Below are positions 8,471 through 59,599 of a stretch of DNA of 64,000 bases, piece by piece. Source of the DNA: an uncultured Gammaproteobacteria bacterium. GTDB lineage: Bacteria > Pseudomonadota > Gammaproteobacteria > Steroidobacterales > UBA11654. Below the pieces are notes generated by a model, which saw nothing but the letters and a program-made list of their open reading frames with translations, did not search any database and had not been told where the DNA came from. Made by a program: the position numbers and the translations under genes. Location of the stretch: positions 134,326 through 198,325 of the forward strand of contig CACJRN010000001.1 in the NCBI GenBank assembly GCA_902595845.1, given 5' to 3'. Every line of letters starts with the position of its first letter. The stretch's first letter is position 1.

Positions 8471-8523
8471 CGTGTACTCCTCGTTTAATTCTTATATAGA
8501 AGTTTGTTAAAAAATTTTGTGGA

Positions 8524-13561: not shown

Positions 13562-13564
13562 ATC

Positions 13565-14158: not shown

Positions 14159-14159
14159 A

Positions 14160-15482: not shown

Positions 15483-15529
15483 GTCAGTTTCCTTTAATAT
15501 TAAACAGTTAAATCATCATTCGGCTTGAA

Positions 15530-16693: not shown

Positions 16694-16885
16694 ATTTTTT
16701 TCTCCGTTATCGGCGCGATTATATATCTATATTATTGTTTTTTATATAATCAATGAAAATTTGTTGCCAGCCGATCATTAGTCATAGACAATAATGAATG
16801 TTTCATTAACTTAGAAGTCTAAAATATTCATATCAATCCCGTTATTAGTATTGAAAAGAAAAAATTAGCAGATTGCATTAGAGTT

Positions 16886-33974: not shown

Positions 33975-34789
33975 GAATGGTTTTCTGCTTGCTCTCTTTC
34001 CCAATCATCTATGACTTGTTTTTTGCAGAATAATCTTCCAAAAATCAATCGACCGAGTACTTTTATCGTAGTCAGCCAAGCTATTTTTGCTCCGTTTTTA
34101 TTGTTTTTTAGCACCTCATCAACCAACCAAGGTGTCACAATTTCAGCACGATCCGCTAAAACATTTAGAACTTTTTTAGCCTTTTCCCAGTCCTTCTCGC
34201 TGGATTTTGATGAACGCAAGAGTAAGTCAGTCGTAACGATGCCGGGACTGATTGATCCAATGACAATAGGTGTATCCTTAAATTCATTTGCAGCTGCTGC
34301 TGTGAAATATCTGAGCGCACGCTTTGTGGAGCCATAAACACTGATGCCTTTCTGAAGCTGCCCGTTGCTGCCAAAGCCTTCAAACATATAAATTTGTCCT
34401 GAACCTTGTTTCAGCATTCTTGATGACACAATTCTTGTTGCCAATATGGTGCCTGTTAAATTTGTATCAATTGTTCTTGTGATCTCATCGTAACTCAGTT
34501 CTTCCAAGCCATTTCTTGAGGTTGCTGCACCAGCATTATTAATCCAGACATCGACAGTACTGAATCTCTCGATTGCTTTATCCCAAACCTTTTCAATTGA
34601 GTCAGTGTTTTCAACCAGGCAAGGAACACCAATTACATCACTATTCTCACCGATATCTCTGAGACCTCTTGCAACGCTCTCCTCACTGGTTCCTGTTATG
34701 ACAACATTATGTCCCCGAGACAAGAATTCCTTAGCCATTCCTAGCCCAATTCCTCTAGTGCCTCCTGTGATAACTACGGTCTTTTTCAT
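33971..34789 (-). CDS. Short-chain dehydrogenase/reductase (SDR)
   Basis: 272 aa. TGGTRGIG cofactor motif, NNAG, and the YGSTK catalytic Tyr/Lys. Confidence 0.85.
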   Translation of the reverse strand: MKKTVVITGGTRGIGLGMAKEFLSRGHNVVITGTSEESVARGLRDIGENSDVIGVPCLVENTDSIEKVWDKAIERFSTVDVWINNAGAATSRNGLEELSYDEITRTIDTNLTGTILATRIVSSRMLKQGSGQIYMFEGFGSNGQLQKGISVYGSTKRALRYFTAAAANEFKDTPIVIGSISPGIVTTDLLLRSSKSSEKDWEKAKKVLNVLADRAEIVTPWLVDEVLKNNKNGAKIAWLTTIKVLGRLIFGRLFCKKQVIDDWEREQAENHS

Positions 34790-40217: not shown

Positions 40218-40228
40218 TGTAATTCCCC

Positions 40229-41806
40229 TTATATCTTTTCATCAAAACCCAAATTACCTGGGTTAATTAAATTCTTTGGATCCATTTCTTTTTTAAGCAT
40301 CAAAAGAAGTTTTTTTGTGCTTTCTGTTCTGGTCTTTAAATATGGATAGTCTTTTCCAATCTGAAAATGAATTGCGCCATTGTTTCTTGCCATTTCCTCT
40401 AAGCGATCTTTTATTTCATGAACAAGCTTATAGCCCTCAGGATTTCGCTCAAAGGTTGGAATATTTTCCAAATCAAGCGGGTAGACCTTTTTATGATAAA
40501 TCGTTTGCTCATCTTGCCAGAGGAAGGTGGGCTCATAGAGAAAGGCATTACTGTCAATGAATGAAAACATCATGTTCATATAAACCCCATGTTTATTCAT
40601 TCGATCCTCATACTCTGCCATCAAGGATTGGTAATCTTGGTTATGCTTCAATACCCTGGAGAATGGTAAGACAGAATGAGTAGGTTTCCATAGCTCCCCA
40701 TTTGGTCCTAAAATGGGTGTCAGCTCCATAAATGGGTTTGCATGGAGGTATAGAGGTATGCTGTTCGCTACTTCTTTCCCGAATTTCTGAGCAACCTTTC
40801 TTACTTCAGCCAACTTGAGCTTGGCTTCTTTTGAATTGATGCCTTCTGTGGTGAAATGTCCAGAATATGCCGAACCTTTAAGAAATCCTCTGCCTGCCAG
40901 GCCCATTTTCATTAGTTGTGCCAGACCATCAAGAACATTTCTTGATGACTTCATAATGGATTGAGCTGCTGCAATGGTGCTGGCATTTTCCATTTCCATG
41001 ATTGCTGTTTTTTGTTTTCTTGGATCTAAGCCATGGTTATCTGAGACCAGACCGAGTTTAGAGATCTCTTTCATCGCATTGAATAGATGCTCAAAGTCCT
41101 CAAATCCAAATGAGCATGCAGCAAATCCCTCGGGATATTTTACAAGCTTTAAAGTAATTCTTGTTTTGACTCCTAGCGCGCCTGAATCTCCTAAGAATAA
41201 ACCACCAAGATCTGGTCCGTAGTGTCTGAAAAAACGTGACGATGCTTCGTCGCTTCCTTGAGATCCTGTTTCAATGACATCCGCGGTTCCAGTTATTACC
41301 TGTAGACTTGATAAGGAATCAGCTGAAACAGCATTATTGGTTCCATGACTGATGGCGTGGAATGACATTGATCCTGCAATGGTGGCGACTCTCCCTGAGA
41401 AAGGTCCCCAATGAGGCGTTCTCAATCCCAGGGGCTTCAATGTTTCATAGAGTTCAAGCCAAGTGACCCCAGGCTCAACTGTGACATACATGTCTTCCTC
41501 ATTGACTTCAATCTTCTTTAATCTCTGGCTATCAATGATAACCGTCTCTTTTCTAGCAGGCAGAAATGAACTTGTATAGGACGCACCGCCACCTCTTGTA
41601 GACACTGTAATTTCATTTTCAATACAGAGTTTTATCAGTGATATAAGTTCGTCAGCATTTCCAGGTCGAACAACTGCAATTGCCTGTTCATTGGCAGTTC
41701 CAAAAATATCCGTTGAATAAAAGTGAAGACTTTCTTGATCTTGGATAACATGTTCAGCACCAATTAGGCTGGAAATTTTTTGAATATTATTTTCTATAGA
41801 TGTCAT
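40229..41806 (-). CDS. FAD-linked oxidase (PCMH/GlcD-type FAD-binding domain)
   Basis: 525 aa. VVRPGNADELISLIKLC...VSTRGGGASYT FAD-binding N-domain and a large C-terminal cap domain. Confidence 0.78.
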   Translation of the reverse strand: MTSIENNIQKISSLIGAEHVIQDQESLHFYSTDIFGTANEQAIAVVRPGNADELISLIKLCIENEITVSTRGGGASYTSSFLPARKETVIIDSQRLKKIEVNEEDMYVTVEPGVTWLELYETLKPLGLRTPHWGPFSGRVATIAGSMSFHAISHGTNNAVSADSLSSLQVITGTADVIETGSQGSDEASSRFFRHYGPDLGGLFLGDSGALGVKTRITLKLVKYPEGFAACSFGFEDFEHLFNAMKEISKLGLVSDNHGLDPRKQKTAIMEMENASTIAAAQSIMKSSRNVLDGLAQLMKMGLAGRGFLKGSAYSGHFTTEGINSKEAKLKLAEVRKVAQKFGKEVANSIPLYLHANPFMELTPILGPNGELWKPTHSVLPFSRVLKHNQDYQSLMAEYEDRMNKHGVYMNMMFSFIDSNAFLYEPTFLWQDEQTIYHKKVYPLDLENIPTFERNPEGYKLVHEIKDRLEEMARNNGAIHFQIGKDYPYLKTRTESTKKLLLMLKKEMDPKNLINPGNLGFDEKI

Positions 41807-44519: not shown

Positions 44520-45224
44520 ATGATTACATTTGGATATTCAGTAATAGCGGTGATCGCTTTTTCATGTTTTGTTTTTGGTGTAAGGGCATATATCAGCGAG
44601 CCAAATAAAATACTATTTTTAATCCTTATAAATACATCATTGCTTTGGTTTGATTCCTTTGTAACAGCGATTGGGCAATATACTGGAGAAGGCACTCTTT
44701 TGCTTGTCATGACATATATACGTTATGCAGCACACTGGCTCACTCTTCCGCTTCTTTTTATCGTCGCTGGAATGATTCTCAGAGCTGCTGACTTTAAATT
44801 TGCACAAAGTAAATATGTCATGGGACTCTTTTGTCTTATTGCTGTATTTTTCATAGTTTATGATTTTAGATACATGTTTATTTTAGATTTCTACCCAGTT
44901 TGTTATGCCGAAACTTTCAGATATGCAACACAAGTTCCGATTGGTCAGGAGTGCTCACCTGGAATGGCGGGAATGGGATATAAAGTTCTCCCTATAGCTC
45001 CAATATTACTGACTTTGATTTTACTGATGTCAGGAATAGCAATATGGATCAAACACAAATGGCCATGGCTTGCAGTGGGTTGTGCCGTAATGCTGTTAGC
45101 TGCTCAGCCAACTCCAATTGGCCCAATTCTAAGTAATGCTGGTGAGCCAATATTTATTTTTGCGCTCATGCTTGCTGCAATCAAGTTTGGCAGTAAGGTA
45201 AAAAAAGAAAATAGTCCTGCTTGA
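44520..45224 (+). CDS. Hypothetical polytopic membrane protein
   Basis: 234 aa, about 6-7 TM helices, no motif recognised. The antisense 93-aa ORF (44429-44710) is judged spurious. Confidence 0.5.
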   Translation: MITFGYSVIAVIAFSCFVFGVRAYISEPNKILFLILINTSLLWFDSFVTAIGQYTGEGTLLLVMTYIRYAAHWLTLPLLFIVAGMILRAADFKFAQSKYVMGLFCLIAVFFIVYDFRYMFILDFYPVCYAETFRYATQVPIGQECSPGMAGMGYKVLPIAPILLTLILLMSGIAIWIKHKWPWLAVGCAVMLLAAQPTPIGPILSNAGEPIFIFALMLAAIKFGSKVKKENSPA

Positions 45225-45232
45225 AAAAAATT

Positions 45233-46462
45233 TTAAAAATTAATGTCTCCATCGCTAGAGAGGGGGTAGATTGAGATAATCTCATCTTTCTTTACGGTCT
45301 CAATCCCCTCTGGGATTAATGCCCAGCAGTTTGCATCACGAAATGGTTTCACCTTGAAAGATTCCTGCCCAGACATGACTTCGGTATGAATTTGTCCACC
45401 ATCATCAACATGAGCTATGGCTTTAGCAAATAAGCAAAATTTTTCTGACTTCTTATAACTCTTTAAATTCTTGCTGGTAATGGGTTTTTCTAACTTTCTA
45501 CCTTGAGCAATTCTTATAGCTTGAGCAGCGAGGAATCTAAATCCAACTGCGACAGAGACTGGGTTACCGGGTAAGCCAAAGACAATTTGACCATTAGGAA
45601 ATTTTGCCATCAATACAGGCTTTCCAGGTCTGATCCAGAGTTTATGAAAAAGTATTTCTGCTCCCATTTCAGTTAGTGCTGCCGGAATGAAATCTGCTTT
45701 ACCTGCTGAGACACCACCACTCGTCAGAATGATATTTGCACCGCTATCCTTTAATTCTTGAATTTGATTAATGATGAGATTTATTTGATCTTCCGCATGC
45801 ACATTCATCGTGCATTCCAGACCCATTGATTGAACTGCAGATTCTAGAAATGGACCATTTGAGTTTGGAATAGATGATGATGAAGTTCGATTCAGCTCAT
45901 TACCTGTGGTGAGTATACCAATCAAAGGCTTTCTGAATGCTTTAATTGAACTGATATTATTCATTATCATTCCAATCTTATGATGGTCATTGATTAGCGA
46001 CCCCTTTGATAATATCAAGTCATCTTTTTGAAAATCTTCACCTGATTTTCTGACATTTGCATTTTTCTTAACTGGCTCATTTATGAGGAGGAATTTAGAA
46101 CCATCTTTCTCAATCAACTTGCCTTTTTCTACAGGCAAAACAGTATCCATATCATCTGGCATTTTGGCGCCAGTCATAATTTCATATACATCAAAATCTT
46201 TTATATTCGATGGAGGCTCGTCTCCAGCAAAAATTGAACCTTTTACTTGAAATTCAATATGATTATCTGAGCATGCTTTATCTGTGATGCTGCTTTTCAG
46301 GCAATATCCATCCATGGCTGAATTAGAAAATGATGGGACTGGGTGACTCGAGAAAATATCATCTGCGATTACTACATTCGCAGATCTTACATCCACCTCT
46401 TCTGTTCCAAAAGAGGAGACTGCTTTTTCTATGATTTGTAATGCTTCCGTGTAGTTTTTCAT
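45233..46462 (-). CDS. moeA: Molybdopterin molybdotransferase
   Basis: 409 aa. SFSNSAMDGY, TGNEL, TSGGVSAGKADF, RPGKP. Confidence 0.9.
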   Translation of the reverse strand: MKNYTEALQIIEKAVSSFGTEEVDVRSANVVIADDIFSSHPVPSFSNSAMDGYCLKSSITDKACSDNHIEFQVKGSIFAGDEPPSNIKDFDVYEIMTGAKMPDDMDTVLPVEKGKLIEKDGSKFLLINEPVKKNANVRKSGEDFQKDDLILSKGSLINDHHKIGMIMNNISSIKAFRKPLIGILTTGNELNRTSSSSIPNSNGPFLESAVQSMGLECTMNVHAEDQINLIINQIQELKDSGANIILTSGGVSAGKADFIPAALTEMGAEILFHKLWIRPGKPVLMAKFPNGQIVFGLPGNPVSVAVGFRFLAAQAIRIAQGRKLEKPITSKNLKSYKKSEKFCLFAKAIAHVDDGGQIHTEVMSGQESFKVKPFRDANCWALIPEGIETVKKDEIISIYPLSSDGDINF

Positions 46463-46566: not shown

Positions 46567-49308
46567 TTGAAGATAAATAGAAGAAATTTTTTAAAGGGTT
46601 CAGCGTCAACAGGTCTTTTGCTCCAATACTCCATGAGCACCCAAGCTATCGCGGATACCCCTTATCGCGGTACTGAAGATTTGTATCGTAGAAAATGGAC
46701 TTGGGACAAAGTGGTTAGAGGAACTCATGGCACCAACTGTGCGGGCACATGTGCATTCAATGTTTATATCAAAGATGGTGTAGTTTGGAGAGAGGAACAG
46801 CAAGGCCAGTATGAGCAACTTGGTGATGTCCCTGATTTTGGTCCAAGAGGTTGTCAAAAGGGATTGCGTCATCATAAATATATGTATGGCAAACAACGAA
46901 TACTATACCCCCTTAAAAGAGTTGGAGAGAGGGGAGAAGGCAAATGGGAAAGAATCAGTTGGGAGCAAGCAACAACAGAGATCGCTGATAAGTTCTTAGA
47001 TTATGCTACTGAGTACAATCCAGAATGTATCTCCTATGGAAGCGGAACTCAGATGTCGGTTAAACTTGCATCTTATGCTTCTTTGTTAAGATTAGGAAAC
47101 ATCACTGGGATCACTGTTCCAGAATTCTTTTCAGGCGTTGGCGATTTACCTACAGGTTCCTATATGACTTTGGGACAAGTATATACCGGGGATACATTTG
47201 CCTCTGTATATAAGTCAAAGTGTGTGATGGTTTGGATGAGCAATCCTGCTGCAACTAGAATTCCTGATGCACATTTCTTTTGGGAAGCAAAATACAATGG
47301 AACACAAGTGATTGCTGTTTCACCAGAATTCACACCAACTGCAATGCATTCAAGTCTTTGGCTCAATCCTAAACCAGGCACCGATGCAGCATTAGCTATG
47401 TCTATGGTTCAGGTCATCTTGAGAGAGAATCTTTATCAGGCAGACTATATAAAAGAACAGACAGACCTCCCTTTTCTTGTAAGAACTGATACGAAAGAAT
47501 TTCTAAGGAGAGAAGATTTGTCTCTCTATGGATTGCTTGCTGTCGCTGACAATGTCTATTACATGTGGGATGAATCAACCAACTCAGTGGTTCAAGCACC
47601 AGGAACAGGTCGAGCAGACAAACCATTTGGTAGAGATAGAAGAAAGTATGGAACACTTGAGCTGGGTGAAATCAAACCCAGTTTAGAGGGAAGATGGATT
47701 GTCGATACATTGGATGGCGAAGTAGAAGTAACCACCGTTTTTGAGTTGCTTAAAGAAGAATCAGAAAATTATAAACCAGAGAATGCATCAGAAATCACAG
47801 GCGTCAGTGCCAAGGTCATAGAGAAAACCGCAAAAATCTTTGCAGATGCAGATCCAGGGATGATCTACGCAGGTTACGCTTCATGTAAATGGCTTCATGG
47901 AGACCTCTTGCAAAGAGCCATGCTTTTACTTCTAGCCTTGACTGGAAGCACAGGAAAAGAAGGCGGAGGTCTTCAAATAGCAAATTCTCCGAATGCTAGG
48001 GGGTTGACACAGTTTGGCTTCTCAGATGTTGGTCCAGCTTTCAGGCTCATATCTTCTACAACCTGGGATTATGACCATGCTGATATGAAAGAGTTAAATC
48101 AAAAAATTTATGGCAATGATTTAGCAGAAAAATTTGATCGATATTACAAGAAGAGTATCGAAGAGGATTGGTTTCCTGACTACAGTAAAAATGGATGGAA
48201 AATGGGCTTTTTTGCAGGCAACAATGGTGCCAACTGGAGAGCGACTGGTAGCACTTGGAGAAAAACAGCATTTGAGGAGCTAGAGACAATCGTATCCCTT
48301 GCCCCAGATATGGGGGTGACTTCATTGTATTCAGATTATGTTTTACCCATAGCTCATCATTACGAGAGAAATGATCTAATGCTTCAATCAAGGGTTCCAT
48401 ATTTACAGGTCCTGAATGAAGCCGTGCCTCCTCTTGGTGAAGCAGTGGATGATTGGGAAGCAAACAGAAGGCTTGCTGAAGCAATATCAAGAAGAGCGAA
48501 AGAAAGGAATATTAAGCCAATTCAAGACGCCGTTGATGGAAGAACGGTTAGAAGGGATTACACCAAAACTTTGGAACTTTACACCATGGGAGGCAGGGTA
48601 AATAACTCAAAAGATGTTGCTCAGTTCATTATCAATGCAAGCCATGGCATACCAAAGATCAGCTTTGAGGAACTCTCGCAAAAAGGAATCGTTAAAGTTG
48701 AAGGTGTTGAAAGCACAATGTGGGAAAAAGATGAATCCCCTTATCACAATGAAATTGTAAAGAGCGTGAAGAAAAAATTACCTTATGAAACCTTCACGGG
48801 AAGACAGCAATTTTATATCGATCATGAATGGTTTATCGAATTTGGCGAAACCTTACCGACTTTCAAAGAGCCATTGAAAATTGATGAATTCCCATTGAGG
48901 ATGATGATGGGGCATGCCAGACATGGCATACATAGTACTTGGCGAGATGATTCATTTCTTCTGAGTTTGCAACGAGGTGAGCCTGATATTTATGTGAATC
49001 CTGATGACGCTACAAATAGGGGTGTTCAAGATGGAGATATGATCAGGGTCTATAATACAGCCGGTGAATTTTTCGCAATGGCACATGTGAGTTCAGGTAT
49101 CCAGCCAGGGATGTTATTCATGTACCATGGTTGGGATCCAAAAATGTTCAAAGGTGATAAGAATTTCAGTGAAGTCATTCCAACAGGCGGCCTAATTAAG
49201 CCAACTTCTATGGCAGGAGATTATGGCCATCTTGGCTATCAACCTTTGGCTTTTGCTCCAAATCAAACATACAAGGATTTTACCTGCGATTTTGAGAAGT
49301 CAGCGTAG
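46567..49308 (+). CDS. Tat-exported molybdopterin oxidoreductase catalytic subunit, Nar-type (type II DMSO reductase family)
   Basis: 913 aa with a TTG start. Twin-arginine signal MKINRRNFLKG...AIA|D. FS0 motif H54-x3-C58-x3-C62...C96 (HGTNCAGTC...PRGCQKG). VGDLPTGS...NPAATRIPDAHFF aligns with NarG CDLPPAS...NVPQTRTPDAHFF, which carries the Asp Mo ligand. Confidence 0.9.
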   Translation: MKINRRNFLKGSASTGLLLQYSMSTQAIADTPYRGTEDLYRRKWTWDKVVRGTHGTNCAGTCAFNVYIKDGVVWREEQQGQYEQLGDVPDFGPRGCQKGLRHHKYMYGKQRILYPLKRVGERGEGKWERISWEQATTEIADKFLDYATEYNPECISYGSGTQMSVKLASYASLLRLGNITGITVPEFFSGVGDLPTGSYMTLGQVYTGDTFASVYKSKCVMVWMSNPAATRIPDAHFFWEAKYNGTQVIAVSPEFTPTAMHSSLWLNPKPGTDAALAMSMVQVILRENLYQADYIKEQTDLPFLVRTDTKEFLRREDLSLYGLLAVADNVYYMWDESTNSVVQAPGTGRADKPFGRDRRKYGTLELGEIKPSLEGRWIVDTLDGEVEVTTVFELLKEESENYKPENASEITGVSAKVIEKTAKIFADADPGMIYAGYASCKWLHGDLLQRAMLLLLALTGSTGKEGGGLQIANSPNARGLTQFGFSDVGPAFRLISSTTWDYDHADMKELNQKIYGNDLAEKFDRYYKKSIEEDWFPDYSKNGWKMGFFAGNNGANWRATGSTWRKTAFEELETIVSLAPDMGVTSLYSDYVLPIAHHYERNDLMLQSRVPYLQVLNEAVPPLGEAVDDWEANRRLAEAISRRAKERNIKPIQDAVDGRTVRRDYTKTLELYTMGGRVNNSKDVAQFIINASHGIPKISFEELSQKGIVKVEGVESTMWEKDESPYHNEIVKSVKKKLPYETFTGRQQFYIDHEWFIEFGETLPTFKEPLKIDEFPLRMMMGHARHGIHSTWRDDSFLLSLQRGEPDIYVNPDDATNRGVQDGDMIRVYNTAGEFFAMAHVSSGIQPGMLFMYHGWDPKMFKGDKNFSEVIPTGGLIKPTSMAGDYGHLGYQPLAFAPNQTYKDFTCDFEKSA

Positions 49309-49314
49309 CTTATT

Positions 49315-49959
49315 ATGGAAAGAGTAACGAATGAAGTGCAAAGACAATCGGAGACTACAGCACTGCCTCGTGCCACAATATACTCACTATTTTCACAGCT
49401 GCTAAGCTCACCTCATGAATTAAAACCACTGAGCTTAACTTCAGATATATCTTTCGAAGGTTTGCCTTTTGATTTCAATGTTAGTGAAATGATCGATAAC
49501 TATATCAAATATGATCATGATGAACTCCGCCTGAGATACAGTGGTTTATTTGAGGTCGGAGATGATGGACCTCCTGTACCCATAAGAGAGGATCTTTTTT
49601 TGGCACAACCAGCAAAACTAAGAGAAGACATAGTAAGATTCTACGATTATTTTGGCTATCAATTGGATGAGGAGTTTCAATGGCAAATGGATCATTTATC
49701 CATCGAGTTAGAGTTCATGCATTTTCTGATTATCGGTGAGCTTCGTTCAGATAACGATAAGCTTTCATTCCAATTAGGCCAGTATGATTTTCTAGAAAAA
49801 CATTTGATAAATTGGGTTCCACCATTTCTAAAGAAATTATCAACTCTAGATGAGAGTGATATCTACACAAAAATTGTTATAGAATTAGAGGAGTTCCTTT
49901 TAAAAGACCAATTTTGGCAAAAGGAAACCATTTCACATAAAGATGTAGCTGGAGGTTAA
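49315..49959 (+). CDS. TorD/NarJ/DmsD-family redox-enzyme maturation chaperone
   Basis: 214 aa all-helical protein sitting between the alpha and beta genes (gaps of 6 and 3 nt). Has the YSGLFEVGDDGPPVPIRED pattern similar to TorD-family cores. Confidence 0.62.
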   Translation: MERVTNEVQRQSETTALPRATIYSLFSQLLSSPHELKPLSLTSDISFEGLPFDFNVSEMIDNYIKYDHDELRLRYSGLFEVGDDGPPVPIREDLFLAQPAKLREDIVRFYDYFGYQLDEEFQWQMDHLSIELEFMHFLIIGELRSDNDKLSFQLGQYDFLEKHLINWVPPFLKKLSTLDESDIYTKIVIELEEFLLKDQFWQKETISHKDVAGG

Positions 49960-49962
49960 GGT

Positions 49963-50952
49963 ATGGGTCAGGTTGCAATGGTGATAGATTTAAACAAGTG
50001 TATTGGTTGTCAAACCTGCACAACTGCTTGTAAATCTCTTTGGACAGATGAACCTGGCCAAGAATATATGCTATGGAATAATGTTGAGACAAAGCCTGGT
50101 CCTGGCTATCCAAGATATTGGGAAGATGGCGGCGGCGGTTTCGATGATGAAGGAAACCTCAAACGCGATGGATTAATGCCTAAAAAAGAAGATCATGGAG
50201 AAGAAGTCCCACTTAATCATGACGAAGTTTATTTCAAAGGCGTTGAAGTTAGGCTTCAACAAGAAAAGCCAATGACCAAAGGCGCCAATTGGGATGAAGA
50301 TACCAGCTCTGGAGATTATCCAAATAATTATCATTTCTACTTGCCCAGAATGTGTAATCATTGCACCAAGCCTGCATGTTTAGAAGCATGTCCTGTGAGA
50401 GCCATTTATAAAAGAGAAGAGGACGGTGTTGTACTGATTGACGATGACAAATGTCAAGGTATCAGAGAATGCAATAAAGCATGTCCATACGATAAGATTT
50501 ATTTTAATTACATCACGGGTAAGTCACAAAAATGTATATTCTGCTTCCCAAGACTAGAAGAGGGCGTTGCACCAGCATGCGCAAGACAGTGTCCAGGTAG
50601 ATTAAGGTTTGTTGGGTTTTTGGAAGATGAGGATGGGCCAATCAATGAATTAGTTTATCAATGGAAGGTCGCCTTACCGCTTCATCCAGAATATGGTACA
50701 GATCCAAATGTATTTTATGTGCCACCAATGTTGCCACCAAATTTTGATGAAGATGGAGATTTCTCTGATGATCCAAGGGTTCCAACAGAATACTTAAGAA
50801 GTCTATTTGGGGATGCCGTGGATGAAGCACTGATAACGCTTCAGTTTGAGATGGAGAAAAAACAAGAAGGAAAGGAATCCAGATTAATGGATATTCTGAT
50901 TGCCAAAGAATGGAAGTCTTTATTTAGCATTCCTGACGTCAAAATTTACTAA
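49963..50952 (+). CDS. Iron-sulfur (beta) subunit of Nar-type molybdoenzyme, 3x[4Fe-4S] + [3Fe-4S]
   Basis: 329 aa. Cluster motifs CIGCQTCTTAC, CNHCTKPACLEACP, CQGIRECNKACP (second Cys replaced, as in the NarH 3Fe-4S site) and CIFCFPRLEEGVAPACARQCP. Confidence 0.9.
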   Translation: MGQVAMVIDLNKCIGCQTCTTACKSLWTDEPGQEYMLWNNVETKPGPGYPRYWEDGGGGFDDEGNLKRDGLMPKKEDHGEEVPLNHDEVYFKGVEVRLQQEKPMTKGANWDEDTSSGDYPNNYHFYLPRMCNHCTKPACLEACPVRAIYKREEDGVVLIDDDKCQGIRECNKACPYDKIYFNYITGKSQKCIFCFPRLEEGVAPACARQCPGRLRFVGFLEDEDGPINELVYQWKVALPLHPEYGTDPNVFYVPPMLPPNFDEDGDFSDDPRVPTEYLRSLFGDAVDEALITLQFEMEKKQEGKESRLMDILIAKEWKSLFSIPDVKIY

Positions 50953-50969: not shown

Positions 50970-52928
50970 ATGACGATGCAATTATCCAACAGTCGCATTT
51001 TTTTAATCATGACATCACTGGTCCTATCATCTGTGATGGCCAGCCTTGACTCCAGTTTCACGCCAATCGCTATTCCAGATATGATCGATAAGCTTGATTC
51101 AAGCACGAGTGAAATTGTTTGGGTTGCACTTGGATATCTCATTGCAGCAAGCGGCCCGATGCTCTTGGCTGCAAAAATGGCTGATGGGATCGGCCATGCC
51201 CGTTTTTTTCAAATTGGGACATTAATATATAGTTTAGCAATGATCGCGTGTGCTTGGGCACCAGATGCTAATACGCTGATTATTATTCGGTTTGTTCAAG
51301 GTTTTGGTATGGCATTATTTCTGCCTACAACCTTCGCTATTGCTACTGCAATGTATGGCCCTGAAAGAAGAGGTAGTGCATTAGGAATTCTTCAGGCAGC
51401 CAATGCAGTCGGTTTTGTCATGGGACCAATTTTCGCAGGATGGTTACTCGATGCATATGACTGGACAGCTATTTTTTGGTCTAGAATTCCATTCGCCATA
51501 CTTGCGATAGTATTGGCTTTTCTCGCATTAGGATTCAAGCAGCCATTTCAATTTTCTGAACGTCAGAAATCTTATGATTATTCTGGCGCAGTATTTTTAA
51601 CATTGGCATTGTATGGAATTTTATATGGTTGCAATAAACTTCCTGTAGAAGACAATCATTTAGAACCAATGGTATGGATTATTTTCCTTTCAGGTTTTGT
51701 TTTTTTTGCACTTTTTATTAAGCAGGAGAAAAAACATCCTGATCCATTGATTGACTTATCACTGTTCTCAAATAACAACGAATTCACAAAAGCCTCTATT
51801 GCATTTACATCGGTTTTTGCAAGTTTCCCAGTGTATCTCTTTATCTTACCAATCATCATGATCAATGGTCTTGAGCTAAAAGCATGGGATGCGGGATTGG
51901 CATTGGGAGCAGCTGCTCTTGCTACCTTATTGATCAGTCCTGTGGCTGGTAATTTATCAGACCGTATTGGCCCAGAAAAACTTTGTATGAGTGGAGCACT
52001 TCTTACAGTGTTTGGTTACATGCTTCTTTTCCTGGTTAATTCAGATTCAGGAGCTTTAGAGATCATTCCAGCGATGATTTTTATTGGTGGTGGGACAGGT
52101 CTATTCTTCTCTCCAAATAATAATTTAATGCTATCAAGTGCTCCACCTGAGAGAGCAGGTATGGTTTCTGGTTTATTCGGTGTATACAGGCAATCAGGCT
52201 ATGCATTGGGATTTGCGATTACAGCCAGCTTATTTACTGCCGTTCAGAATTGGTTTGATGTCAATTGGGCATATGACTCACTTAATGCAACAACTGTCGA
52301 ATCGGCAGATACAATCACTCAGCTCTATAATCAAGGCAGCCAATGGTCACCAGAGGTTCTGGTCTTTATTTTGCATATTGGTATTTTGCTCTGCTCAAGT
52401 ATATTGATCATTACTTTTGTGAATTCAATCCCAAAAGTGAAGCTCATGTTTTCAAAACAGATGACCACAGCGCTGATGGCAGTCGTTGTTTCAATCATTT
52501 CAATGGCTTCATATAGCTTGAATGCTCCTGGAGTTATTGACAGTCTTCAAATAAATGAGATCAATCGACCTGTTGTTTCTGTGCAAGCATTTGGTATGTC
52601 TTCAAGAGAGTATGAGATTCAAGATCAAACGAATTTTAGAATCATAAATGCCATGAATGATGAACCATTTGCCAATGAAAAATATGAATTAAGGTGTGGT
52701 TTTTGTCACGGAGCAGATCTAGATGGCATTGAAGGACTGGGAGTTACACTCAAGAATTCAGACTTTCTGAAGAGCATGACAACAGACGAAATTATAGATT
52801 TTTTGAAAGTAGGCAGGATGCCGGATGCCGAAGATACTATTTCTGGGGGCGTGATGCCAGGATTCAACTGGCTTGAAACATCTGAGCTTGAAGAAATTGC
52901 CAATTTTATAAAGATTAACAATGAATGA
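50970..52928 (+). CDS. Fusion protein: 14-TM MFS (DHA2/EmrB-like) permease + 15th TM helix + C-terminal monoheme class I cytochrome c domain
   Basis: 652 aa with 14 hydrophobic helices in the usual MFS pattern. An extra helix TTALMAVVVSIISMASYSL spans residues 499-517 and is followed by a 58-aa linker. Then comes CGFCH (residues 576-580, nt 52695-52709) and a distal Met in GGVMPGF. Confidence 0.85.
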   Translation: MTMQLSNSRIFLIMTSLVLSSVMASLDSSFTPIAIPDMIDKLDSSTSEIVWVALGYLIAASGPMLLAAKMADGIGHARFFQIGTLIYSLAMIACAWAPDANTLIIIRFVQGFGMALFLPTTFAIATAMYGPERRGSALGILQAANAVGFVMGPIFAGWLLDAYDWTAIFWSRIPFAILAIVLAFLALGFKQPFQFSERQKSYDYSGAVFLTLALYGILYGCNKLPVEDNHLEPMVWIIFLSGFVFFALFIKQEKKHPDPLIDLSLFSNNNEFTKASIAFTSVFASFPVYLFILPIIMINGLELKAWDAGLALGAAALATLLISPVAGNLSDRIGPEKLCMSGALLTVFGYMLLFLVNSDSGALEIIPAMIFIGGGTGLFFSPNNNLMLSSAPPERAGMVSGLFGVYRQSGYALGFAITASLFTAVQNWFDVNWAYDSLNATTVESADTITQLYNQGSQWSPEVLVFILHIGILLCSSILIITFVNSIPKVKLMFSKQMTTALMAVVVSIISMASYSLNAPGVIDSLQINEINRPVVSVQAFGMSSREYEIQDQTNFRIINAMNDEPFANEKYELRCGFCHGADLDGIEGLGVTLKNSDFLKSMTTDEIIDFLKVGRMPDAEDTISGGVMPGFNWLETSELEEIANFIKINNE

Positions 52929-54237
52929 TTTGGTAAATGCAAAGCAACAAGACTCCAAGGCTGCATGGTATGCAGTCTTTGTCCTCTTGCTCGCTTATGT
53001 TCTTTCCTTCGTGGATAGAATCATTCTCAGTCTATTGGTCACACCAATTAAAGCTGACCTAGGCACAACTGATGCACAAATGGGACTACTCATGGGGTTT
53101 GCATTTGCCATATTTTATACAGTAGCAGGCATACCGATTGCTAAATATTCAGATGTGAAGAGCAGAAGAATGATAATCGCCATTGGGGTATTTTTGTGGA
53201 GCATAATGACTGCTGTTTGTGGATTGGCTAGAAGTTTTTTCCAACTTTTCCTAGCAAGAGTAGGCGTTGGAGTGGGAGAGGCTGCACTCACACCTGCAGC
53301 TTACTCTATGATTTCCGATTATTTCAGCGAAGATAAGTTAGGCAGAGCAATGGCAGTATATAAATCTGGTGCGATGTTTGGCGGAGGCTTGGCTTTTATC
53401 ATAGGCGGTGCAGTGGTTGGATATGTGGTCAATTCCGATTCCATTATCCTTCCAATATTAGGAGAAATGAAGCCATGGCAAATGGCATTCATCATTGTCG
53501 GTCTTCCAGGCGTTTTAATCGGTCTTTTGATGTTGACAGTAAAGGAGCCAAGAAGGACAGGAATAGCTGATACGCTTGATAAAAAAGTATCCATATCTGA
53601 TGCCATTAAATATATGCAAAAACGTTGGAGGATTTATTTGTTTATCTTCTTGGGTTTCGCTTTTATGGGGGCTCCCATTAGTTCAGCATTGACTTGGATA
53701 CCTGTTTACCTTCAGAGAATACATGAGATGAGTATTCCCGAGAGTGGAAGAACCCTTGGTATTATTATTTTCTTCTTATCGACAAGTGGAGTCATTGTCA
53801 GTGGTTGGTTGATTGATACTTTTAAGAAAAAAGGTTTTCAGGATGGTTATTTTAAGGTTGCTTTAATGATTTGTATTGTCACCATACCCATCTCCTATTT
53901 TGTCATGAACGATGAAAGTCTAGAAAAAACCCTCTGGTGGTTACACCCATTTGTATTCGTTGCAAGTATGCCGCTCGCTATTTCTGCAACTGTGTTACAA
54001 ATTGTTACGCCTAATCAATTAAGGGCTCAAGTCTCAGCAGTATATATGCTTTTTTTGAATCTGATCACAGCACTCATAGTGACCACAGGCATTGGTTTTA
54101 TTACTGATTTCTGGTTTAAGAATGAAATGGCTCTAGGTCAATCCATCACTATGGTTAATCTCTTATCAATGTTTCTGGCTTTTCTATGCTTATACATTGC
54201 AATGTCAAACTTTAATAAAGAATTCACAAAGTCCTAA
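52921..54237 (+). CDS. MFS transporter (12 TM)
   Basis: 438 aa. FVDRIILSLL, then G-x-x-x-D-x-x-x-R-R-like motif A (KYSDVKSRRMII). 8-nt overlap with the preceding gene. Confidence 0.8.
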   Translation: MNDLVNAKQQDSKAAWYAVFVLLLAYVLSFVDRIILSLLVTPIKADLGTTDAQMGLLMGFAFAIFYTVAGIPIAKYSDVKSRRMIIAIGVFLWSIMTAVCGLARSFFQLFLARVGVGVGEAALTPAAYSMISDYFSEDKLGRAMAVYKSGAMFGGGLAFIIGGAVVGYVVNSDSIILPILGEMKPWQMAFIIVGLPGVLIGLLMLTVKEPRRTGIADTLDKKVSISDAIKYMQKRWRIYLFIFLGFAFMGAPISSALTWIPVYLQRIHEMSIPESGRTLGIIIFFLSTSGVIVSGWLIDTFKKKGFQDGYFKVALMICIVTIPISYFVMNDESLEKTLWWLHPFVFVASMPLAISATVLQIVTPNQLRAQVSAVYMLFLNLITALIVTTGIGFITDFWFKNEMALGQSITMVNLLSMFLAFLCLYIAMSNFNKEFTKS

Positions 54238-54312: not shown

Positions 54313-54945
54313 ATGGTTGATCAGTCAACAGAAGATAATTACGCTGGTGTCTGGGATAGTGGATTAGGGTTTGGTGAAAAATCGGCTTTAATTGTTATTG
54401 ATTTACTTCAGGGTTATACCACTGAAGGCTCAGCACTCTATGCACCTGGTGTAGTTGAGTGTGTAAAGGAAGTGCCAGATCTACTCGGATTGGCAAGAGA
54501 AAAAAATGTGCCTGTGATTCACACCAGGGTTCTATACACAAAACCAAATTACGAGGATGGAGGTGTTTGGATTAAGAAAGCGCCAGTGCTTCTTGATTTG
54601 GTCGAAGGCCATCCTTATGCAGAGTTTTGCGAAGGAGTTGAGCCTCAAGAAGGAGAGGTCGTTATAGTGAAGCAGTATGCAAGTGCATTCTTTGGTACCT
54701 CATTGGTGGCTACATTAAATGGTCTTGGCGTTGATACACTCATCATTACTGGATGCACAACATCTGGATGTATCCGTGCCACTGCCGTTGATACAGTTCA
54801 GCATGGTTTCAGACCTATCTGCGTAAGAGAGTGTATCGGTGATAGAGCTGAAGGCCCACATGAAGCAAATCTTTTTGATATCAATGCCAAATATGGTGAT
54901 GTCATCAGCAAAGATGTTGCTATGGATTATTTAAACAGTTTATAA
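54313..54945 (+). CDS. Isochorismatase-family cysteine hydrolase (N-carbamoylsarcosine amidase-like)
   Basis: 210 aa. ALIVIDLLQGY (Asp), VKQYASAF (Lys) and ITGCTTSGCIRATAVD (nucleophile Cys), the family catalytic triad pattern. Confidence 0.8.
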   Translation: MVDQSTEDNYAGVWDSGLGFGEKSALIVIDLLQGYTTEGSALYAPGVVECVKEVPDLLGLAREKNVPVIHTRVLYTKPNYEDGGVWIKKAPVLLDLVEGHPYAEFCEGVEPQEGEVVIVKQYASAFFGTSLVATLNGLGVDTLIITGCTTSGCIRATAVDTVQHGFRPICVRECIGDRAEGPHEANLFDINAKYGDVISKDVAMDYLNSL

Positions 54946-54964
54946 AAATTTAGGGGAAGGAATT

Positions 54965-55888
54965 ATGAGTGATTTAACACAATGCAGGCACTATGATTAT
55001 GTGCCAATAATTGACAGGGAACCATTCAAGCTACCTGATGGCGCTAGAGTCGCAATACTGCCATATATCAACATTGAACATTTTCCAGCAGCCATTCCGG
55101 GCACATCATTGATACCTGGGACAGCGGCTTTCTCTCCTGATCCATTGAATTATGGATGGAGGGATTATGGAAACAGAGTTGGTTTATGGAGAATGATGGA
55201 ATTGATGGATAAGCTCGGCATGAGAGGCACTGTGTGTTTGAATGCAGAAATTATTAGAGAGTATCCAAGAATCATCGAAGAATCTCTGGCAAGAGACTGG
55301 GCATTCATAGGGCATGGAATCAATAATGCCCCTGCAAACTTTATAGGTAACGCGCCAGATGGGGAAGGTGGTCATACGCCACTTCCTGAGGAGAAAGAGA
55401 GAGAAATCATCAGCACAGTTTGCCAGACAATGGAAGAGGCATTGGGTAAGAAAACTAAAGGTTGGTTAAGCCCATTCCTAACTCATACAGATAATACTCC
55501 AAAAATATTGGAAGAAAATGGAGTTGAGTATCTATGTGACTATACAGCAGATGATCATCCTTTTAGGTTTAATACACCACAGAATAATCTCATTGCTGTT
55601 CCATACACTGTAGAACTCAATGATATTCCTGCATTTTTGGGTCACTCAGGAGTCGGAGTTTCATCAGAGGCATTTGGAGACATGATTGTTGATCAATTTG
55701 ATGTCCTATATGAGGAGGGCGCAACCAATGCAAGATGTATGCCTATTTGCTTGCATACTTTTCATGTTGGGCAGCCAAATAAATTCAAGCATCTTAAAAG
55801 AGCTTTTGAATATATTGCCAGCCATGATGATGTCATTCTTTCAACAGGAGATGACATTAATGATTGGTATCGAGAACAATACATGTAA
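54965..55888 (+). CDS. Polysaccharide-deacetylase-fold hydrolase (divergent, PuuE-size)
   Basis: 307 aa. The size and the pattern (ARVAILPYINIEHF..., IGHGINN, LCDYTADDHPF) resemble the divergent NodB/PuuE-type deacetylase family. Assigned by eye only. Confidence 0.55.
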   Translation: MSDLTQCRHYDYVPIIDREPFKLPDGARVAILPYINIEHFPAAIPGTSLIPGTAAFSPDPLNYGWRDYGNRVGLWRMMELMDKLGMRGTVCLNAEIIREYPRIIEESLARDWAFIGHGINNAPANFIGNAPDGEGGHTPLPEEKEREIISTVCQTMEEALGKKTKGWLSPFLTHTDNTPKILEENGVEYLCDYTADDHPFRFNTPQNNLIAVPYTVELNDIPAFLGHSGVGVSSEAFGDMIVDQFDVLYEEGATNARCMPICLHTFHVGQPNKFKHLKRAFEYIASHDDVILSTGDDINDWYREQYM

Positions 55889-55921
55889 AGCATCGGCTAT
55901 TTAGCCAAGCTTAGTTATAAT

Positions 55922-55952
55922 AATGGGCAGTATTACTGCCCATTATTTTTTT
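55922..55952 (+). terminator. Rho-independent terminator
   Basis: AATGGGCAGT (55922-55931) and ACTGCCCATT (55935-55944) form a perfect 10-bp stem, followed by A-TTTTTTT. Confidence 0.88.
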
Positions 55953-57213: not shown

Positions 57214-58413
57214 TTATTTCTTTAATGCATTCAGAATTAAGTTTGGCAGTTTTGAATCATCCCATTCAGGCGAGTTATCACCGGTTCTGAGTATTACAAG
57301 AGACTCAGAGGGAATAATGTACATCCTTTGTTTTCCAATCCCATCCATAAAGAAAAGGTCGTCGGCAACATACGGTTCGCTGTGGAAGTTTGCATACATG
57401 GTTAGTCTTGCATCATAAGCTCTTCTTTCCTGATATTCATTGCCAAGCCAAATTTGCATTCCATAATTTCTATTTGAATCAGAAGGCGTAATCATCTGAT
57501 TTACCCAGTTTTTAGGTAACACCTCTCTATCCATAAAATACCCTTTATTCATGAGCATCTGACCGATACGAATCATGTCACTGATTGAAGCCCACATACA
57601 GCAGTCTGTATGGACCATTCCATTGGGTCGATCAACAAAGAAGAATGCATCCCGACTTCCAAGTGGAGACCATATTTTTTCAGAGAAATATTCGCTGTAT
57701 CTCTTTCCAGAAGTTCTTTGAATCAGAATGCCAAGTATTTGGCTGTTGTAGTTATTATGCGAGAAAACAGTGCCTGGCTTGATTTCTGGATCCATATTTA
57801 GATTTGCACTTACAATGTCTGTTCCATAAGCTCTTTGGATTCGATCTGAGAATGGAGAGTAATCAAAGGATTCTTTGAGCCCTCCTGACATGTGTAGTAA
57901 ATGCTTTATAGTGATGTTCGTTTTATCACCATTTCTCCATTCTTCAATGTAATTTGCAACAGGATCATCTATTGAATCTATAAACCCATCTTCAATTAAG
58001 TGTCCCACCAATAGTGCATTCATGGTTTTTGTGAAAGAGTGAAGGCCAAAAAGTGAGTCTGGCTCGGTCTCTTGCCAGTAAGACTCAAAAACAATTTTAC
58101 CTTTATGTTGAATTACAAGACTTTTGCTGCCATGTATTTCTGCATATTGTCTAGCCTCTTCAAATACCTCCAAAGCTATCTCGCTTTGTTCTGGGCTTAT
58201 TTTTTCAAGAGGGGATAGAAAATTTCCCTGCGTTCTTTCGAGCGGTTGATACCAAGAAAAGTCTGGATCCAATGGGTTACCCATTAGAGCAGTTGTCCAT
58301 CTTTCCCAAAACAGCCCAAAGAGCCCAAAACTTGCTGAACCAATGATTGAGCTGATGACGAAAATCACGACCACAATAGAGATCAGTATGAATTTGAAAA
58401 ATTGTCTAATCAT
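57214..58413 (-). CDS. Membrane-anchored beta-lactamase-fold serine hydrolase (paralog 2)
   Basis: 399 aa. N-terminal TM helix, S-x-x-K motif SFTK, HLLHMSGGL. Confidence 0.8.
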   Translation of the reverse strand: MIRQFFKFILISIVVVIFVISSIIGSASFGLFGLFWERWTTALMGNPLDPDFSWYQPLERTQGNFLSPLEKISPEQSEIALEVFEEARQYAEIHGSKSLVIQHKGKIVFESYWQETEPDSLFGLHSFTKTMNALLVGHLIEDGFIDSIDDPVANYIEEWRNGDKTNITIKHLLHMSGGLKESFDYSPFSDRIQRAYGTDIVSANLNMDPEIKPGTVFSHNNYNSQILGILIQRTSGKRYSEYFSEKIWSPLGSRDAFFFVDRPNGMVHTDCCMWASISDMIRIGQMLMNKGYFMDREVLPKNWVNQMITPSDSNRNYGMQIWLGNEYQERRAYDARLTMYANFHSEPYVADDLFFMDGIGKQRMYIIPSESLVILRTGDNSPEWDDSKLPNLILNALKK

Positions 58414-59599
58414 TTCTTATTCCTCTACTAATTGTGTTCGGTAATACCGAGTCATCCCACTCCATTTGACCAGCACCCGTTCTCACTATAACCAATTTTT
58501 TTGAAGGAATAACATAAACTCTTTGTCCACCAAAACCATCTAGATAAATGATGTCCTTATCATCAAAGGGTTCTCCATGGATTCCTGTTGCAGTGCTTTT
58601 GGGATTATAGATTCTATTTTCTTGGTGCTCTGTCCCAAGCCAAGTCAGGTAACCATAGTTTGGATTTGTGATGGATGGTGTTTTCATTTCGTTTATCCAT
58701 GACTTTGATACTATTTGTTCATCTTTGAATTTGCCTTCATTGAGAATAATGGTCCCTATTCTCAACCAATCTCTTGCAGTTGCGTTGAGACAGCAATATG
58801 TTCTTGGCATTTGATTTTTATCTGAATCCAGAACCACTGATGCATCATCTTGTGCGACCTTTTGCCATATTTTTTCAGATAAAAGATCAGCATATCTCTT
58901 ATCGTATGCTCGTTGAAGCAATAAACCCAAGTTCTGAGGATTTACACCGTTGTATTCAAATATTTCATTGGGTTGTCGGTAGGCTAATTGGCGAAGTGTC
59001 ATTTTTGTTACATCTTCACCAAGCATCAGTTGATTAAATTCACTAAGTGGGTGGAATGAAAATTCTGGGTAATCAAGACCACTCGACTGTTGCAGCAAAT
59101 GTTTTATTGTAATCTGATTTCTAGAGTCATCTCTCCATTCGATGAGATGTTTTGAAGCAGGCTCATTGACGCTCTCAATGATGCCTTCATCAATTGCAAT
59201 CCCAACCATCATTGCTAACACTGTTTTATGCATCGACTGAGTGTCACTGATTGTTTCGGCATTATAGTCATCAAAATATTTCTCAAGAATGATTTCATCA
59301 TTCTGATATATCAAAAGGGCATGAGACCCCATCTTTTCTGAAAATTCGATTGCTGCCTCTATAGACTCATCTGATATATTTTTTGGCGAGCCACTATTTA
59401 TGAAAACAGCATTGCTTGCTTTAACTGTTTCAAGTTCACCTGTTGGTTCACCCATTATCATCGATGTAATTCTGGTCATTACAGTTGGGCTTTGAAAATA
59501 GAGGTATCCAATATAGGCAGACACTAAAAAAACCACTGAGATGAAAATCTTGACGATGAGTTTAATTAATTTGAAGAACATCAAAGTATCATAGCTCAC
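58406..59599 (-). CDS. Membrane-anchored beta-lactamase-fold serine hydrolase (paralog 1)
   Basis: 397 aa. N-terminal TM helix, S-x-x-K motif SMHK, HLLQQSSGL. Colinear with the downstream paralog, which it overlaps by 8 nt. Confidence 0.8.
   Translation of the reverse strand: MSYDTLMFFKLIKLIVKIFISVVFLVSAYIGYLYFQSPTVMTRITSMIMGEPTGELETVKASNAVFINSGSPKNISDESIEAAIEFSEKMGSHALLIYQNDEIILEKYFDDYNAETISDTQSMHKTVLAMMVGIAIDEGIIESVNEPASKHLIEWRDDSRNQITIKHLLQQSSGLDYPEFSFHPLSEFNQLMLGEDVTKMTLRQLAYRQPNEIFEYNGVNPQNLGLLLQRAYDKRYADLLSEKIWQKVAQDDASVVLDSDKNQMPRTYCCLNATARDWLRIGTIILNEGKFKDEQIVSKSWINEMKTPSITNPNYGYLTWLGTEHQENRIYNPKSTATGIHGEPFDDKDIIYLDGFGGQRVYVIPSKKLVIVRTGAGQMEWDDSVLPNTISRGIRND

Follow-up and report, generated by a model that had tools for sequence, protein, structure and literature searches.

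A transporter-cytochrome c fusion protein encoded beside a PcrA-related molybdoenzyme in uncultured bacteria

The window, the 64,000-nucleotide stretch of DNA analyzed here, comes from an uncultured gammaproteobacterium (contig CACJRN010000001.1, positions 134,326 to 198,325). On its forward strand it encodes a protein in which a transporter of the major facilitator superfamily (MFS) continues, through an extra transmembrane (TM) helix and a long linker, into a c-type cytochrome domain. The gene is the fourth of a tightly packed set (alpha, delta, beta, fusion, second MFS), of which alpha, delta and beta belong to a molybdoenzyme. It starts 17 nucleotides past the stop codon of beta, and its own stop codon overlaps the start of the second MFS gene (ATGAATGA).

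Architecture and distribution of the fusion protein

The gene and the parts of its product are as follows:

50970-52928, forward strand: MFS-cytochrome c fusion gene, 652 amino acids, in the order MFS, TM helix 15, linker, cytochrome c
50970-52421, forward strand: 14-TM DHA2-type MFS core, residues 1-484
52449-52520, forward strand: 15th TM helix, residues 494-517, after a Lys/Arg-rich, predicted cytoplasmic loop and before a conserved (A/V/T)PG
52521-52664, forward strand: flexible, predicted periplasmic tether, residues 518-565, with a conserved (A/P)FG(M/W)xxR motif (AFGMSSR in the window, nucleotides 52587-52607)
52665-52925, forward strand: predicted class I mono-haem cytochrome c domain, residues 566-652, with CGFCH at 52695-52709 and Met629-Pro630 at 52854-52859

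More than 100 clusters of relatives were retrieved from 5.8 billion proteins, with lengths of 645-680 amino acids, at least 97% query coverage and identities down to 46%. Some 90%-identity clusters contain about 500 member sequences, and all clusters are named just "MFS transporter" or similar. In a scan of one genome per species, the fusion was present in about 64 species genomes, none of which is clearly a cultured isolate. The hosts are Woeseia-labelled and other Gammaproteobacteria, Chromatiales, Steroidobacteraceae, Alphaproteobacteria, Neomarinimicrobiota, Vicinamibacteria and one Bacteroidetes-labelled bin, so that the domain architecture is conserved across several phyla. The continuous open reading frame (ORF) recurs in single-cell genomes, metagenome-assembled genomes (MAGs) and metagenome contigs of many projects. 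A first-pass annotation, made from the letters of the window, had held that the fusion is genuine and not the product of a frameshift; its conservation at full length in these protein clusters and species genomes, across independent assemblies, answers that question in its favor. The same annotation knew of no characterized MFS-cytochrome c fusion, and a literature search, with most subscription journals outside its coverage, likewise found no description of such a fusion or of the enzyme clade discussed below. The fusion family is thus real, widespread and unannotated, without a published description found in that search. One host label deserves a separate remark: locus L053 (CAMCBU010000005.1) belongs to a MAG labelled Klebsiella pneumoniae and has an alpha-delta-beta-fusion cassette typical of Steroidobacteraceae-like loci. 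The public record probably assigns this MAG to the wrong taxon.

The MFS core matches MFS_1 over residues 17-414 (E=1.7e-54) and scores 239.5 bits against TIGR00711 (efflux_EmrB, the DHA2/EmrB model; cut-off 230.2). An AlphaFold2 model of the fusion protein, with 27 homologues as input, has a mean predicted local distance difference test score (pLDDT) of 80.3 and a predicted template modelling score of 0.75, and places 14 helices ahead of residue 485. Both results agree with the 14-helix DHA2/EmrB-like core that the first reading had assigned to residues 1-484. By Foldseek, the MFS part superposes on the 14-TM transporters EmrB, QacA, EfpA and MHAS2168 with target-normalized TM-scores of 0.77-0.82 (EmrB 0.80, QacA 0.78, EfpA 0.80-0.82). 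Residues R107, Q110 and G111 of motif B, the glycines and proline of motif C (G-x3-G-P-x3-G; G148, G152, P153, G157) and Asp27 in TM1 are invariant in the 27 homologues. By alignment offset alone, Asp27 would be equivalent to QacA D34. Several periplasmic loops are unusually conserved, namely LPVEDNHL(D/E) between TM7 and TM8, LLDA(Y/F)DW between TM5 and TM6, and WSPE before TM14. This conservation points either to a surface for contact with another protein or to an important transport mouth, and the MFS half may serve as a docking platform through the conserved acidic periplasmic loops.

Conservation differs along the protein. The mean pairwise identity is 0.63 in the MFS core (0.71 in its N-domain), 0.43 in the cytochrome, 0.27 in helix 15 and 0.21 in the linker. 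The core appears to behave as a working protein and is probably an active H+-coupled transporter. Among MFS proteins of the genome scan without a match to the cytochrome domain, the closest are just 27-31% identical to the fused core, and the fused DHA2 lineage therefore seems to occur only as a fusion.

The junction between the two halves aligns throughout the family: an N-S pair ending TM14, a basic loop, a hydrophobic helix, (A/V/T)PG, and a linker with (A/P)FG(M/W)xxR. The loop between TM14 and TM15 is lysine-rich in the window (NSIPKVKLMFSKQ). The helix that follows is modelled at residues 494-516 with a pLDDT of 86-91, and its earlier placement at residues 499-517 (nucleotides 52464-52520) was right. 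It varies in sequence and is hydrophobic in all 27 homologues. Residues 524-567 have a pLDDT below 50, and the linker, of about 50 amino acids, is thus modelled as disordered; within it the residues F541 and G542 do not vary, and R546 is conserved at 90% or more. To judge from this pattern, helix 15 and the linker act like an anchor and a tether, keeping their length and character while the sequence drifts except at FG(M/W)xxR.

The orientation of these parts was assessed from loop charges. With the most hydrophobic 19-residue core taken for each modelled helix, Lys and Arg were counted in the loops of the 27 sequences. The family means are 18.5 in loops assigned to the cytoplasm on the assumption of an inside N-terminus and 4.2 in the remaining loops; loop 14-15 has a mean of 3.1 Lys and Arg and 0.1 Asp and Glu. 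In MFS proteins the N- and C-termini both lie on the cytoplasmic side, and helix 15 would therefore export the C-terminal part. Stand-alone members of the cytochrome family, described below, bear N-terminal Sec-type signal peptides. Together, the positive-inside count and these signal peptides indicate that the C-terminal domain is periplasmic, as the first-pass annotation had argued from the odd number of helices. Separate translation of an anchored cytochrome from an internal start before TM15 was considered and rejected: neither Met493 nor Met498 is conserved, and the family alignment contains no conserved internal start codon ahead of TM15. Promoter-like matches are at chance level (26 found versus 31.8 expected).

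In Pfam, the cytochrome models did not reach their gathering scores on the single sequence (PF00034 Cytochrom_C, 19.2 bits versus 21.3; PF13442 Cytochrome_CBB3, 16.7 bits versus 27). The cytochrome domain therefore needed independent support, which comes from several sides. Many homologues have precomputed PF00034 or PF13442 matches. The CGFCH motif (residues 576-580) and the Met in GGVMPGF lie where they were first placed, and C576, C579, H580, M629 and P630 are invariant in the 27 homologues, down to 47% identity; the Cys, Cys and His of CxxCH and the Met-Pro pair are also invariant in nine stand-alone members. A profile of the domain family finds the haem domains of CcoP in the PDB (E=1e-17), with CxxCH aligned and Met-Pro falling on CcoP "vmPsw". 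Class I cytochromes have a distal axial Met toward the C-terminus, and Met629 is the probable axial ligand. Modelled alone, the domain has a pLDDT of 91.5, and all Foldseek matches listed for it are c-type cytochromes or cytochrome c domains, including XoxG, c-553, c6 and the cytochrome domains of cd1 and haem-Cu nitrite reductases (query-normalized TM-scores of about 0.6-0.74). On sequence and model, the assignment as a class I mono-haem cytochrome c is far beyond chance, and the domain is predicted to attach haem.

The operon and its relatives in other genomes

The genes around the fusion in the window are:

45233-46462, reverse strand: MoeA, molybdopterin molybdotransferase, divergent from alpha; retained next to the operon both in the window clade and in unfused loci
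46567-49308, forward strand: alpha, Mo-bis(molybdopterin guanine dinucleotide) catalytic subunit, 913 amino acids, TTG start, with a twin-arginine translocation (Tat) motif KINRRNFLK and an FS0 motif HX3CX3C..C
49315-49959, forward strand: delta, NarJ/TorD-type assembly chaperone (PF02613, E=1.4e-14; TIGR03482, 94.5 bits, below the cut-off of 152.3)
49963-50952, forward strand: beta, four-cluster Fe-S electron-transfer subunit (TIGR03478, 512.3 bits, above the cut-off of 480.7)
52921-54237, forward strand: second MFS, 12-TM, anion:cation-symporter-like, translationally coupled to the fusion
54313-54945, forward strand: isochorismatase-family hydrolase
54965-55888, forward strand: PuuE-like deacetylase

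TIGR03479 is by far the best model for alpha, with 889.9 bits, although this is below the cut-off of 984.75. The closest PDB entry is PcrA (4ydd/5e7o), which matches over the full length with 586 bits; EbdA follows with 407 bits and NarG with about 300. The family to which alpha itself belongs is large and bears only generic names. The gate of PcrA is formed by the aromatic residues F164, Y165 and W461 round an Mo ligated by Asp170. In the alignment to 5e7o, the Mo ligand D170 and F164 are kept, Y165 is replaced by F and W461 by S. By these comparisons alpha is probably a Tat-exported subunit of a type II enzyme in the dimethyl sulfoxide (DMSO) reductase family and sister to PcrA. Perchlorate or chlorate as a firm substrate call was rejected, since the PcrA gate is not retained. 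Nitrite or nitrate was also rejected, since the Y-4x-D-11x-Q pattern given for the NXR/NAR group (PMC6050957) is missing from alpha. The window contains neither a chlorite dismutase gene nor respiratory genes. A haem-b gamma subunit of the EB_dh type is absent from the fusion, the window operon and the related operons examined; the cytochrome c may be a functional stand-in for gamma, not a homologue of it.

The isochorismatase-like and PuuE-like genes are probably the lineage-specific tail of the same transcription unit. The region's only strong terminator-like element, a perfect 13-bp hairpin with a T-run at 55919-55947, follows right after the PuuE-like gene. It overlaps the annotated start (55923) of a GSDH-like ORF, the true start of which therefore probably lies farther downstream. 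Genes for amide and N-heterocycle hydrolysis flank the operon on both sides (38748-41806 and 54313-55888), and comprise allantoinase/hydantoinase-like, FAD-linked oxidase, isochorismatase-like (best match biuret hydrolase) and PuuE-like deacetylase genes. There is no EmrA-type adaptor gene near the fusion.

Three further features of the window lie outside the operon. A 234-amino-acid polytopic membrane protein (44520-45224), with only a weak DUF373 match, is encoded between a queuosine-precursor transporter gene and moeA, and keeps this place in the window clade at 67-85% identity. On the minus strand at 57214-59599 are two tandem overlapping beta-lactamase/serine-hydrolase paralogues of 399 and 397 amino acids with weak matches to 3-succinylated cholic acid synthase; the pair is kept downstream of the operon in relatives. 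At 6434-9798, an H+-translocating pyrophosphatase gene lies beside a TTG-start phosphofructokinase gene, and the pair may be an arrangement for glycolysis based on inorganic pyrophosphate.

Gene order was compared by tblastn of the window proteins against 76 loci (designated by L and a number). The order alpha-delta-beta-fusion occurs in two clades. One is the window's own, with fusions 71-98% identical to that of the window. The other is distant and includes several phyla; its fusions are 44-48%, its alphas 64-69% and its betas 68-75% identical to those of the window, and its sole recurrent extra genes are those for MobA and MobB. The second MFS recurs as well: it is found in L015, about 7 kb downstream in L039, L042, L053 and L063, and, at 44% identity (E=4e-115), in the unfused Chromatiales operon described next.

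In two loci, L083 (a Chromatiales-labelled MAG) and L087 (a metagenome contig), the cytochrome is free. The slot directly after beta is occupied by a stand-alone cytochrome c of 114-120 amino acids with a signal peptide, followed by a rhomboid-family gene, an MFS gene (44% identical to the window's second MFS) and a TonB-dependent receptor gene. The alpha of these loci (P0138) is 69% identical to that of the window, against 64-69% for the alphas of the distant fused loci. The free and fused cytochromes are orthologous. The free cytochrome of L083 is 49% identical to the window's fused domain over 81 residues (E=2e-30) and 38-59% identical to the fused domains of all other loci. By group, the free cytochromes share 42-50% identity with each fused group, compared with 33-43% between the fused groups themselves; in a rough tree, the free forms fall among the fused ones. 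The link to the molybdoenzyme that the first-pass annotation had proposed thus gains support from genomes in which the orthologous cytochrome, unfused, lies directly after beta.

A search of a representative library with residues 485-652 returned dozens of clusters of free cytochromes (105-130 amino acids) and, among the matches listed, no single-stretch match of fusion length (about 650 amino acids); several matches that span TM15 and the linker are gene fragments. Another form is P0267 (171 amino acids), with a lipoprotein-like N-terminus (...VVYGC) and a linker with PFGMASR as in the fused proteins. It suggests that the linker motif and membrane tethering matter whatever the type of anchor. 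Because the same cytochrome, whether free, possibly lipid-anchored or fused to an MFS protein, occupies the enzyme's operon slot, it is likely to be the dedicated redox partner of the enzyme.

Some additional features of the unfused loci can be noted. The rhomboid-family gene follows the stand-alone cytochrome in four of four such loci (L083:12886-13815, L087:6626-7540, L086:8394-9323 and L088:8388-9317), and neither the window nor any annotated fused locus examined has one. In fused and unfused arrangements alike, a polytopic membrane protein adjoins the cytochrome or is joined to it. L086 (6827-8369) and L088 (6428-8363) hold decayed unfused operons: MoeA, delta and the cytochrome c are still there, as are the rhomboid gene and the MFS, but alpha and beta are missing, leaving only gaps of 260 and 225 nucleotides in L086 and ORF remnants of 66-69 amino acids in L088. 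Upstream of the molybdoenzyme region, an SDR gene is paired with a glutaminyl-tRNA synthetase gene in the window (32307-34789) and in L083 (1943-4477), and also in L086 and L088, which hints that fused and unfused operons lie in a homologous chromosomal neighborhood.

Locus L084 has an alpha homologue that is 58% identical to the window's, with neither delta nor beta adjacent. It is accompanied (12688-18375) by isochorismatase, polysaccharide deacetylase, Amidohydro_2 and CN_hydrolase genes, a set that resembles the hydrolase genes around the window's operon. A cytochrome c encoded near this homologue was tried as a relative of the fused domain and proved unrelated, and the MFS genes of the locus were tried as an unfused form of the DHA2 core and are not such a form.

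Proposed electron transfer and transport by the fusion protein

We consider it probable that the fusion is a bifunctional membrane protein, the C-terminal part of which is a tethered electron carrier for alpha-beta. It would be analogous, not homologous, to cytochrome cy, and would replace the missing gamma subunit. Both ends of the 14-TM DHA2-type transporter half would be cytoplasmic. Helix 15 would recross the membrane and put the disordered tether of about 50 residues and the mono-haem cytochrome c in the periplasm. There the cytochrome would be the dedicated electron partner of the Tat-exported alpha-beta encoded upstream, swinging between the Fe-S subunit beta and membrane respiratory complexes as a carrier held at the membrane surface and not free. 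Oxidation of a substrate appears the more likely direction, with electrons passing from substrate to beta, haem and terminal oxidase, because the hosts are oxic pelagic bacteria and a HiPIP is present in the unfused loci. For the lineage of the window only, the TonB receptor, the second MFS and the hydantoinase-, isochorismatase- and PuuE-like genes suggest oxidation of organic nitrogen in the periplasm before uptake.

Several points weigh against this proposal. The direction of electron flow is a guess, and the window's haem domain by itself stays below the gathering scores of both Pfam cytochrome models. The second MFS, recurrent in these operons, may be the real transporter of the pathway, which would leave the DHA2 half without an obvious job. 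Further points come from a third clade of fusions (L017-L024 and others), about 50% identical to the window's and found mostly in GC-rich MAGs labelled Gammaproteobacteria or Chromatiales/Chromatiaceae, with no alpha-delta-beta within 10 kb. Immediately upstream of the fusion, all of the approximately 20 loci of this clade have a gene for a polytopic membrane protein of about 220 amino acids. In the sole genome where both loci are visible, on one contig (L023, L083), the enzyme operon comes with a free, soluble cytochrome of its own. Because of the third-clade loci, the fusion can persist apart from the enzyme operon, or may do more than serve the enzyme.

The 220-amino-acid protein is encoded in loci among L017-L032, L041, L055, L059 and L077-L080 (for example L077:9345-10004 and L079:9329-9991). 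It has about six TM helices, and its invariant residues include H13, F17, W20, G22, D24 and a GVF motif. It has no relative in Pfam, NCBIfam or the PDB and is unrelated to orf234 of the window. It is never found in enzyme-linked loci and has no counterpart in the window. Two distant paralogues flank the alpha homologue of L084 (1713-2537 and 2556-3227).

The third clade keeps alive a reading in which transporter and haem act together on a transported solute. The MFS half would move a redox-active solute, and the tethered cytochrome would oxidize or reduce it at the mouth on the periplasmic side or gate its transport by redox state, largely independently of alpha-beta, which would merely share the cytochrome pool. 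We regard this as rather unlikely, though it would fit the third clade, where the whole fusion, with CxxCH and Met, is kept away from alpha-delta-beta in a two-gene unit with a membrane protein. It is also in keeping with an MFS core that is more conserved than the cytochrome and has nearly invariant periplasmic loops at the transport mouth, with the lack of close unfused relatives of the fused DHA2 core in the genome scan (27-31% at best), and with MamZ, an MFS protein with a YedZ-like domain for which an oxidoreductase-and-transport complex has been proposed (PMC3905215). However, in most loci the fusion occupies precisely the position of the enzyme's own cytochrome, and the domains are orthologous; no candidate cargo is known, and no such mode of action is known for DHA2 proteins.

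It is improbable that the MFS half has lost transport and serves only as a large anchor or docking platform for cytochrome and enzyme, an option that the first-pass annotation had left open. The existence of soluble and putative lipoprotein forms of the cytochrome makes tethering itself seem to be what matters, and the operon's second MFS could perform any transport needed. A single helix or a lipid anchor would, however, suffice for that purpose. The 484-residue core is the most conserved part of the protein, and R107, motif C and the Asp of TM1 do not vary between phyla, which argues against a mere anchor, whereas TM15, the actual anchor element, varies freely.

Less probable still is a precursor in which TM15 is an internal signal or anchor and a protease cuts after it to free a soluble cytochrome c, with the fusion as a device for co-expression. 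The layout around TM15 does resemble a signal peptide (basic, then hydrophobic, then the conserved (A/V/T)PG), the stand-alone orthologues have cleavable-looking signal peptides, and a rhomboid-family gene accompanies the stand-alone cytochrome in four of four unfused loci. Yet the residues ahead of PG are not a consistent AxA-type signal-peptidase site, the rhomboid gene does not occur with the fused form in the window or in annotated fused loci, and a long linker of conserved length with FGMxSR would be needless in a released protein. An assembly or frameshift artefact joining two genes has a negligible probability, as the same ORF is found in many projects down to 44-46% identity with the junction (TM15 and linker motif) aligned, and there is no conserved internal start before TM15.

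Beyond the tethered electron carrier that we favor, the fusion could, more speculatively and with low probability, be a new type of third subunit of periplasmic molybdoenzymes that physically couples transport to electron transfer. The first-pass annotation had suggested such coupling as a possibility, with the fusion perhaps also anchoring the soluble molybdoenzyme to the membrane. The transporter would deliver or remove the substrate or product, or present a membrane-soluble substrate, at a docking surface made up of the invariant acidic periplasmic loops, and the haem would collect or supply the electrons. If so, this would be a substrate-channelling respiratory module with a wide distribution among uncultured marine bacteria. 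A functional tie between transporter and redox halves would make the fusion a rare case of an MFS protein integrated in an electron-transfer chain. The importance of the family hinges on this linkage between transport and electron transfer and on the substrate of the enzyme. In any case, the family is conserved and abundant in the environment, and its database label, "MFS transporter", overlooks the haem domain. It marks an uncharacterized sister group of PcrA that lacks the usual gamma and appears to use a dedicated mono-haem cytochrome c. The free, possibly lipid-anchored and MFS-fused forms of the cytochrome amount to a natural experiment in wiring periplasmic redox enzymes to the membrane. 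The hosts are uncultured (pelagic Woeseiaceae-like Gammaproteobacteria, Marinimicrobia and Alphaproteobacteria), and the substrate of the enzyme could reflect an unrecognized marine redox process.

Comparison with known systems

The enzyme resembles PcrABCD, SerABC, ClrABC, DdhABC, EbdABC and the Nitrotoga NXR in its predicted Tat-exported alpha with FS0 and an Asp Mo ligand, its four-cluster beta and its NarJ-like delta. In type II members of the DMSO reductase family, a third haem protein passes electrons to or from c-type cytochromes (PMC6050957). The window system differs in having neither an EB_dh gamma nor a multihaem PcrC; as third component it has a mono-haem cytochrome c, either free or MFS-fused. 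It also differs in the gene order alpha-delta-beta, and neither the PcrA gate nor the Y-4x-D-11x-Q pattern of NXR/NAR is kept.

The transporter half shares with QacA, EmrB and EfpA the 14-TM fold, motifs B and C, the acidic residue in TM1 and, by its score, the TIGR00711 family. It is only 20-23% identical to them in structural alignments, and is set apart by the extra helix, the haem domain and unusually conserved periplasmic loops. Unlike these transporters, it is encoded within a redox-enzyme operon, with no EmrA-type adaptor gene nearby.

In three-domain haem-Cu nitrite reductases, as here, a class I cytochrome c is tethered beside its partner, and their cytochrome domains are among the best structural matches (TM-score 0.73-0.74). 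There the cytochrome is part of the catalytic enzyme, whereas here it is on a transporter and the enzyme is a separate, predicted exported complex.

MamZ of magnetotactic bacteria, an MFS protein with a C-terminal YedZ-like domain, has been proposed to join transport and redox activity together with partners (PMC3905215). It shares with the fusion the combination of MFS and C-terminal redox domain in one polypeptide. The redox parts are not homologous: MamZ has a membrane-embedded YedZ-like ferric-reductase domain on a 12-TM MFS, whereas the fusion has a soluble haem-c domain, an extra helix and a tether on a 14-TM DHA2 protein. The architecture of the fusion is seen in none of MamZ, the haem-Cu nitrite reductases and the membrane-anchored cytochromes c.

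The anchor, tether and haem domain are laid out as in cytochrome cy. Cytochrome cy of Rhodobacter capsulatus and c552 of Paracoccus consist of a TM anchor, a long flexible linker and a periplasmic class I mono-haem domain, and shuttle electrons between respiratory partners. Cytochrome cy, however, is a protein of about 200 amino acids with an N-terminal signal-anchor, whereas the anchor of the fusion is helix 15 of a 14-TM transporter. The cy domain of an engineered CcoP-cy fusion (6xkx) scores a negligible 7 bits or so against the profile of the fused domain family. The partners would differ as well: those of cytochrome cy are bc1 or cbb3, and that of the fusion is presumably a periplasmic molybdoenzyme.

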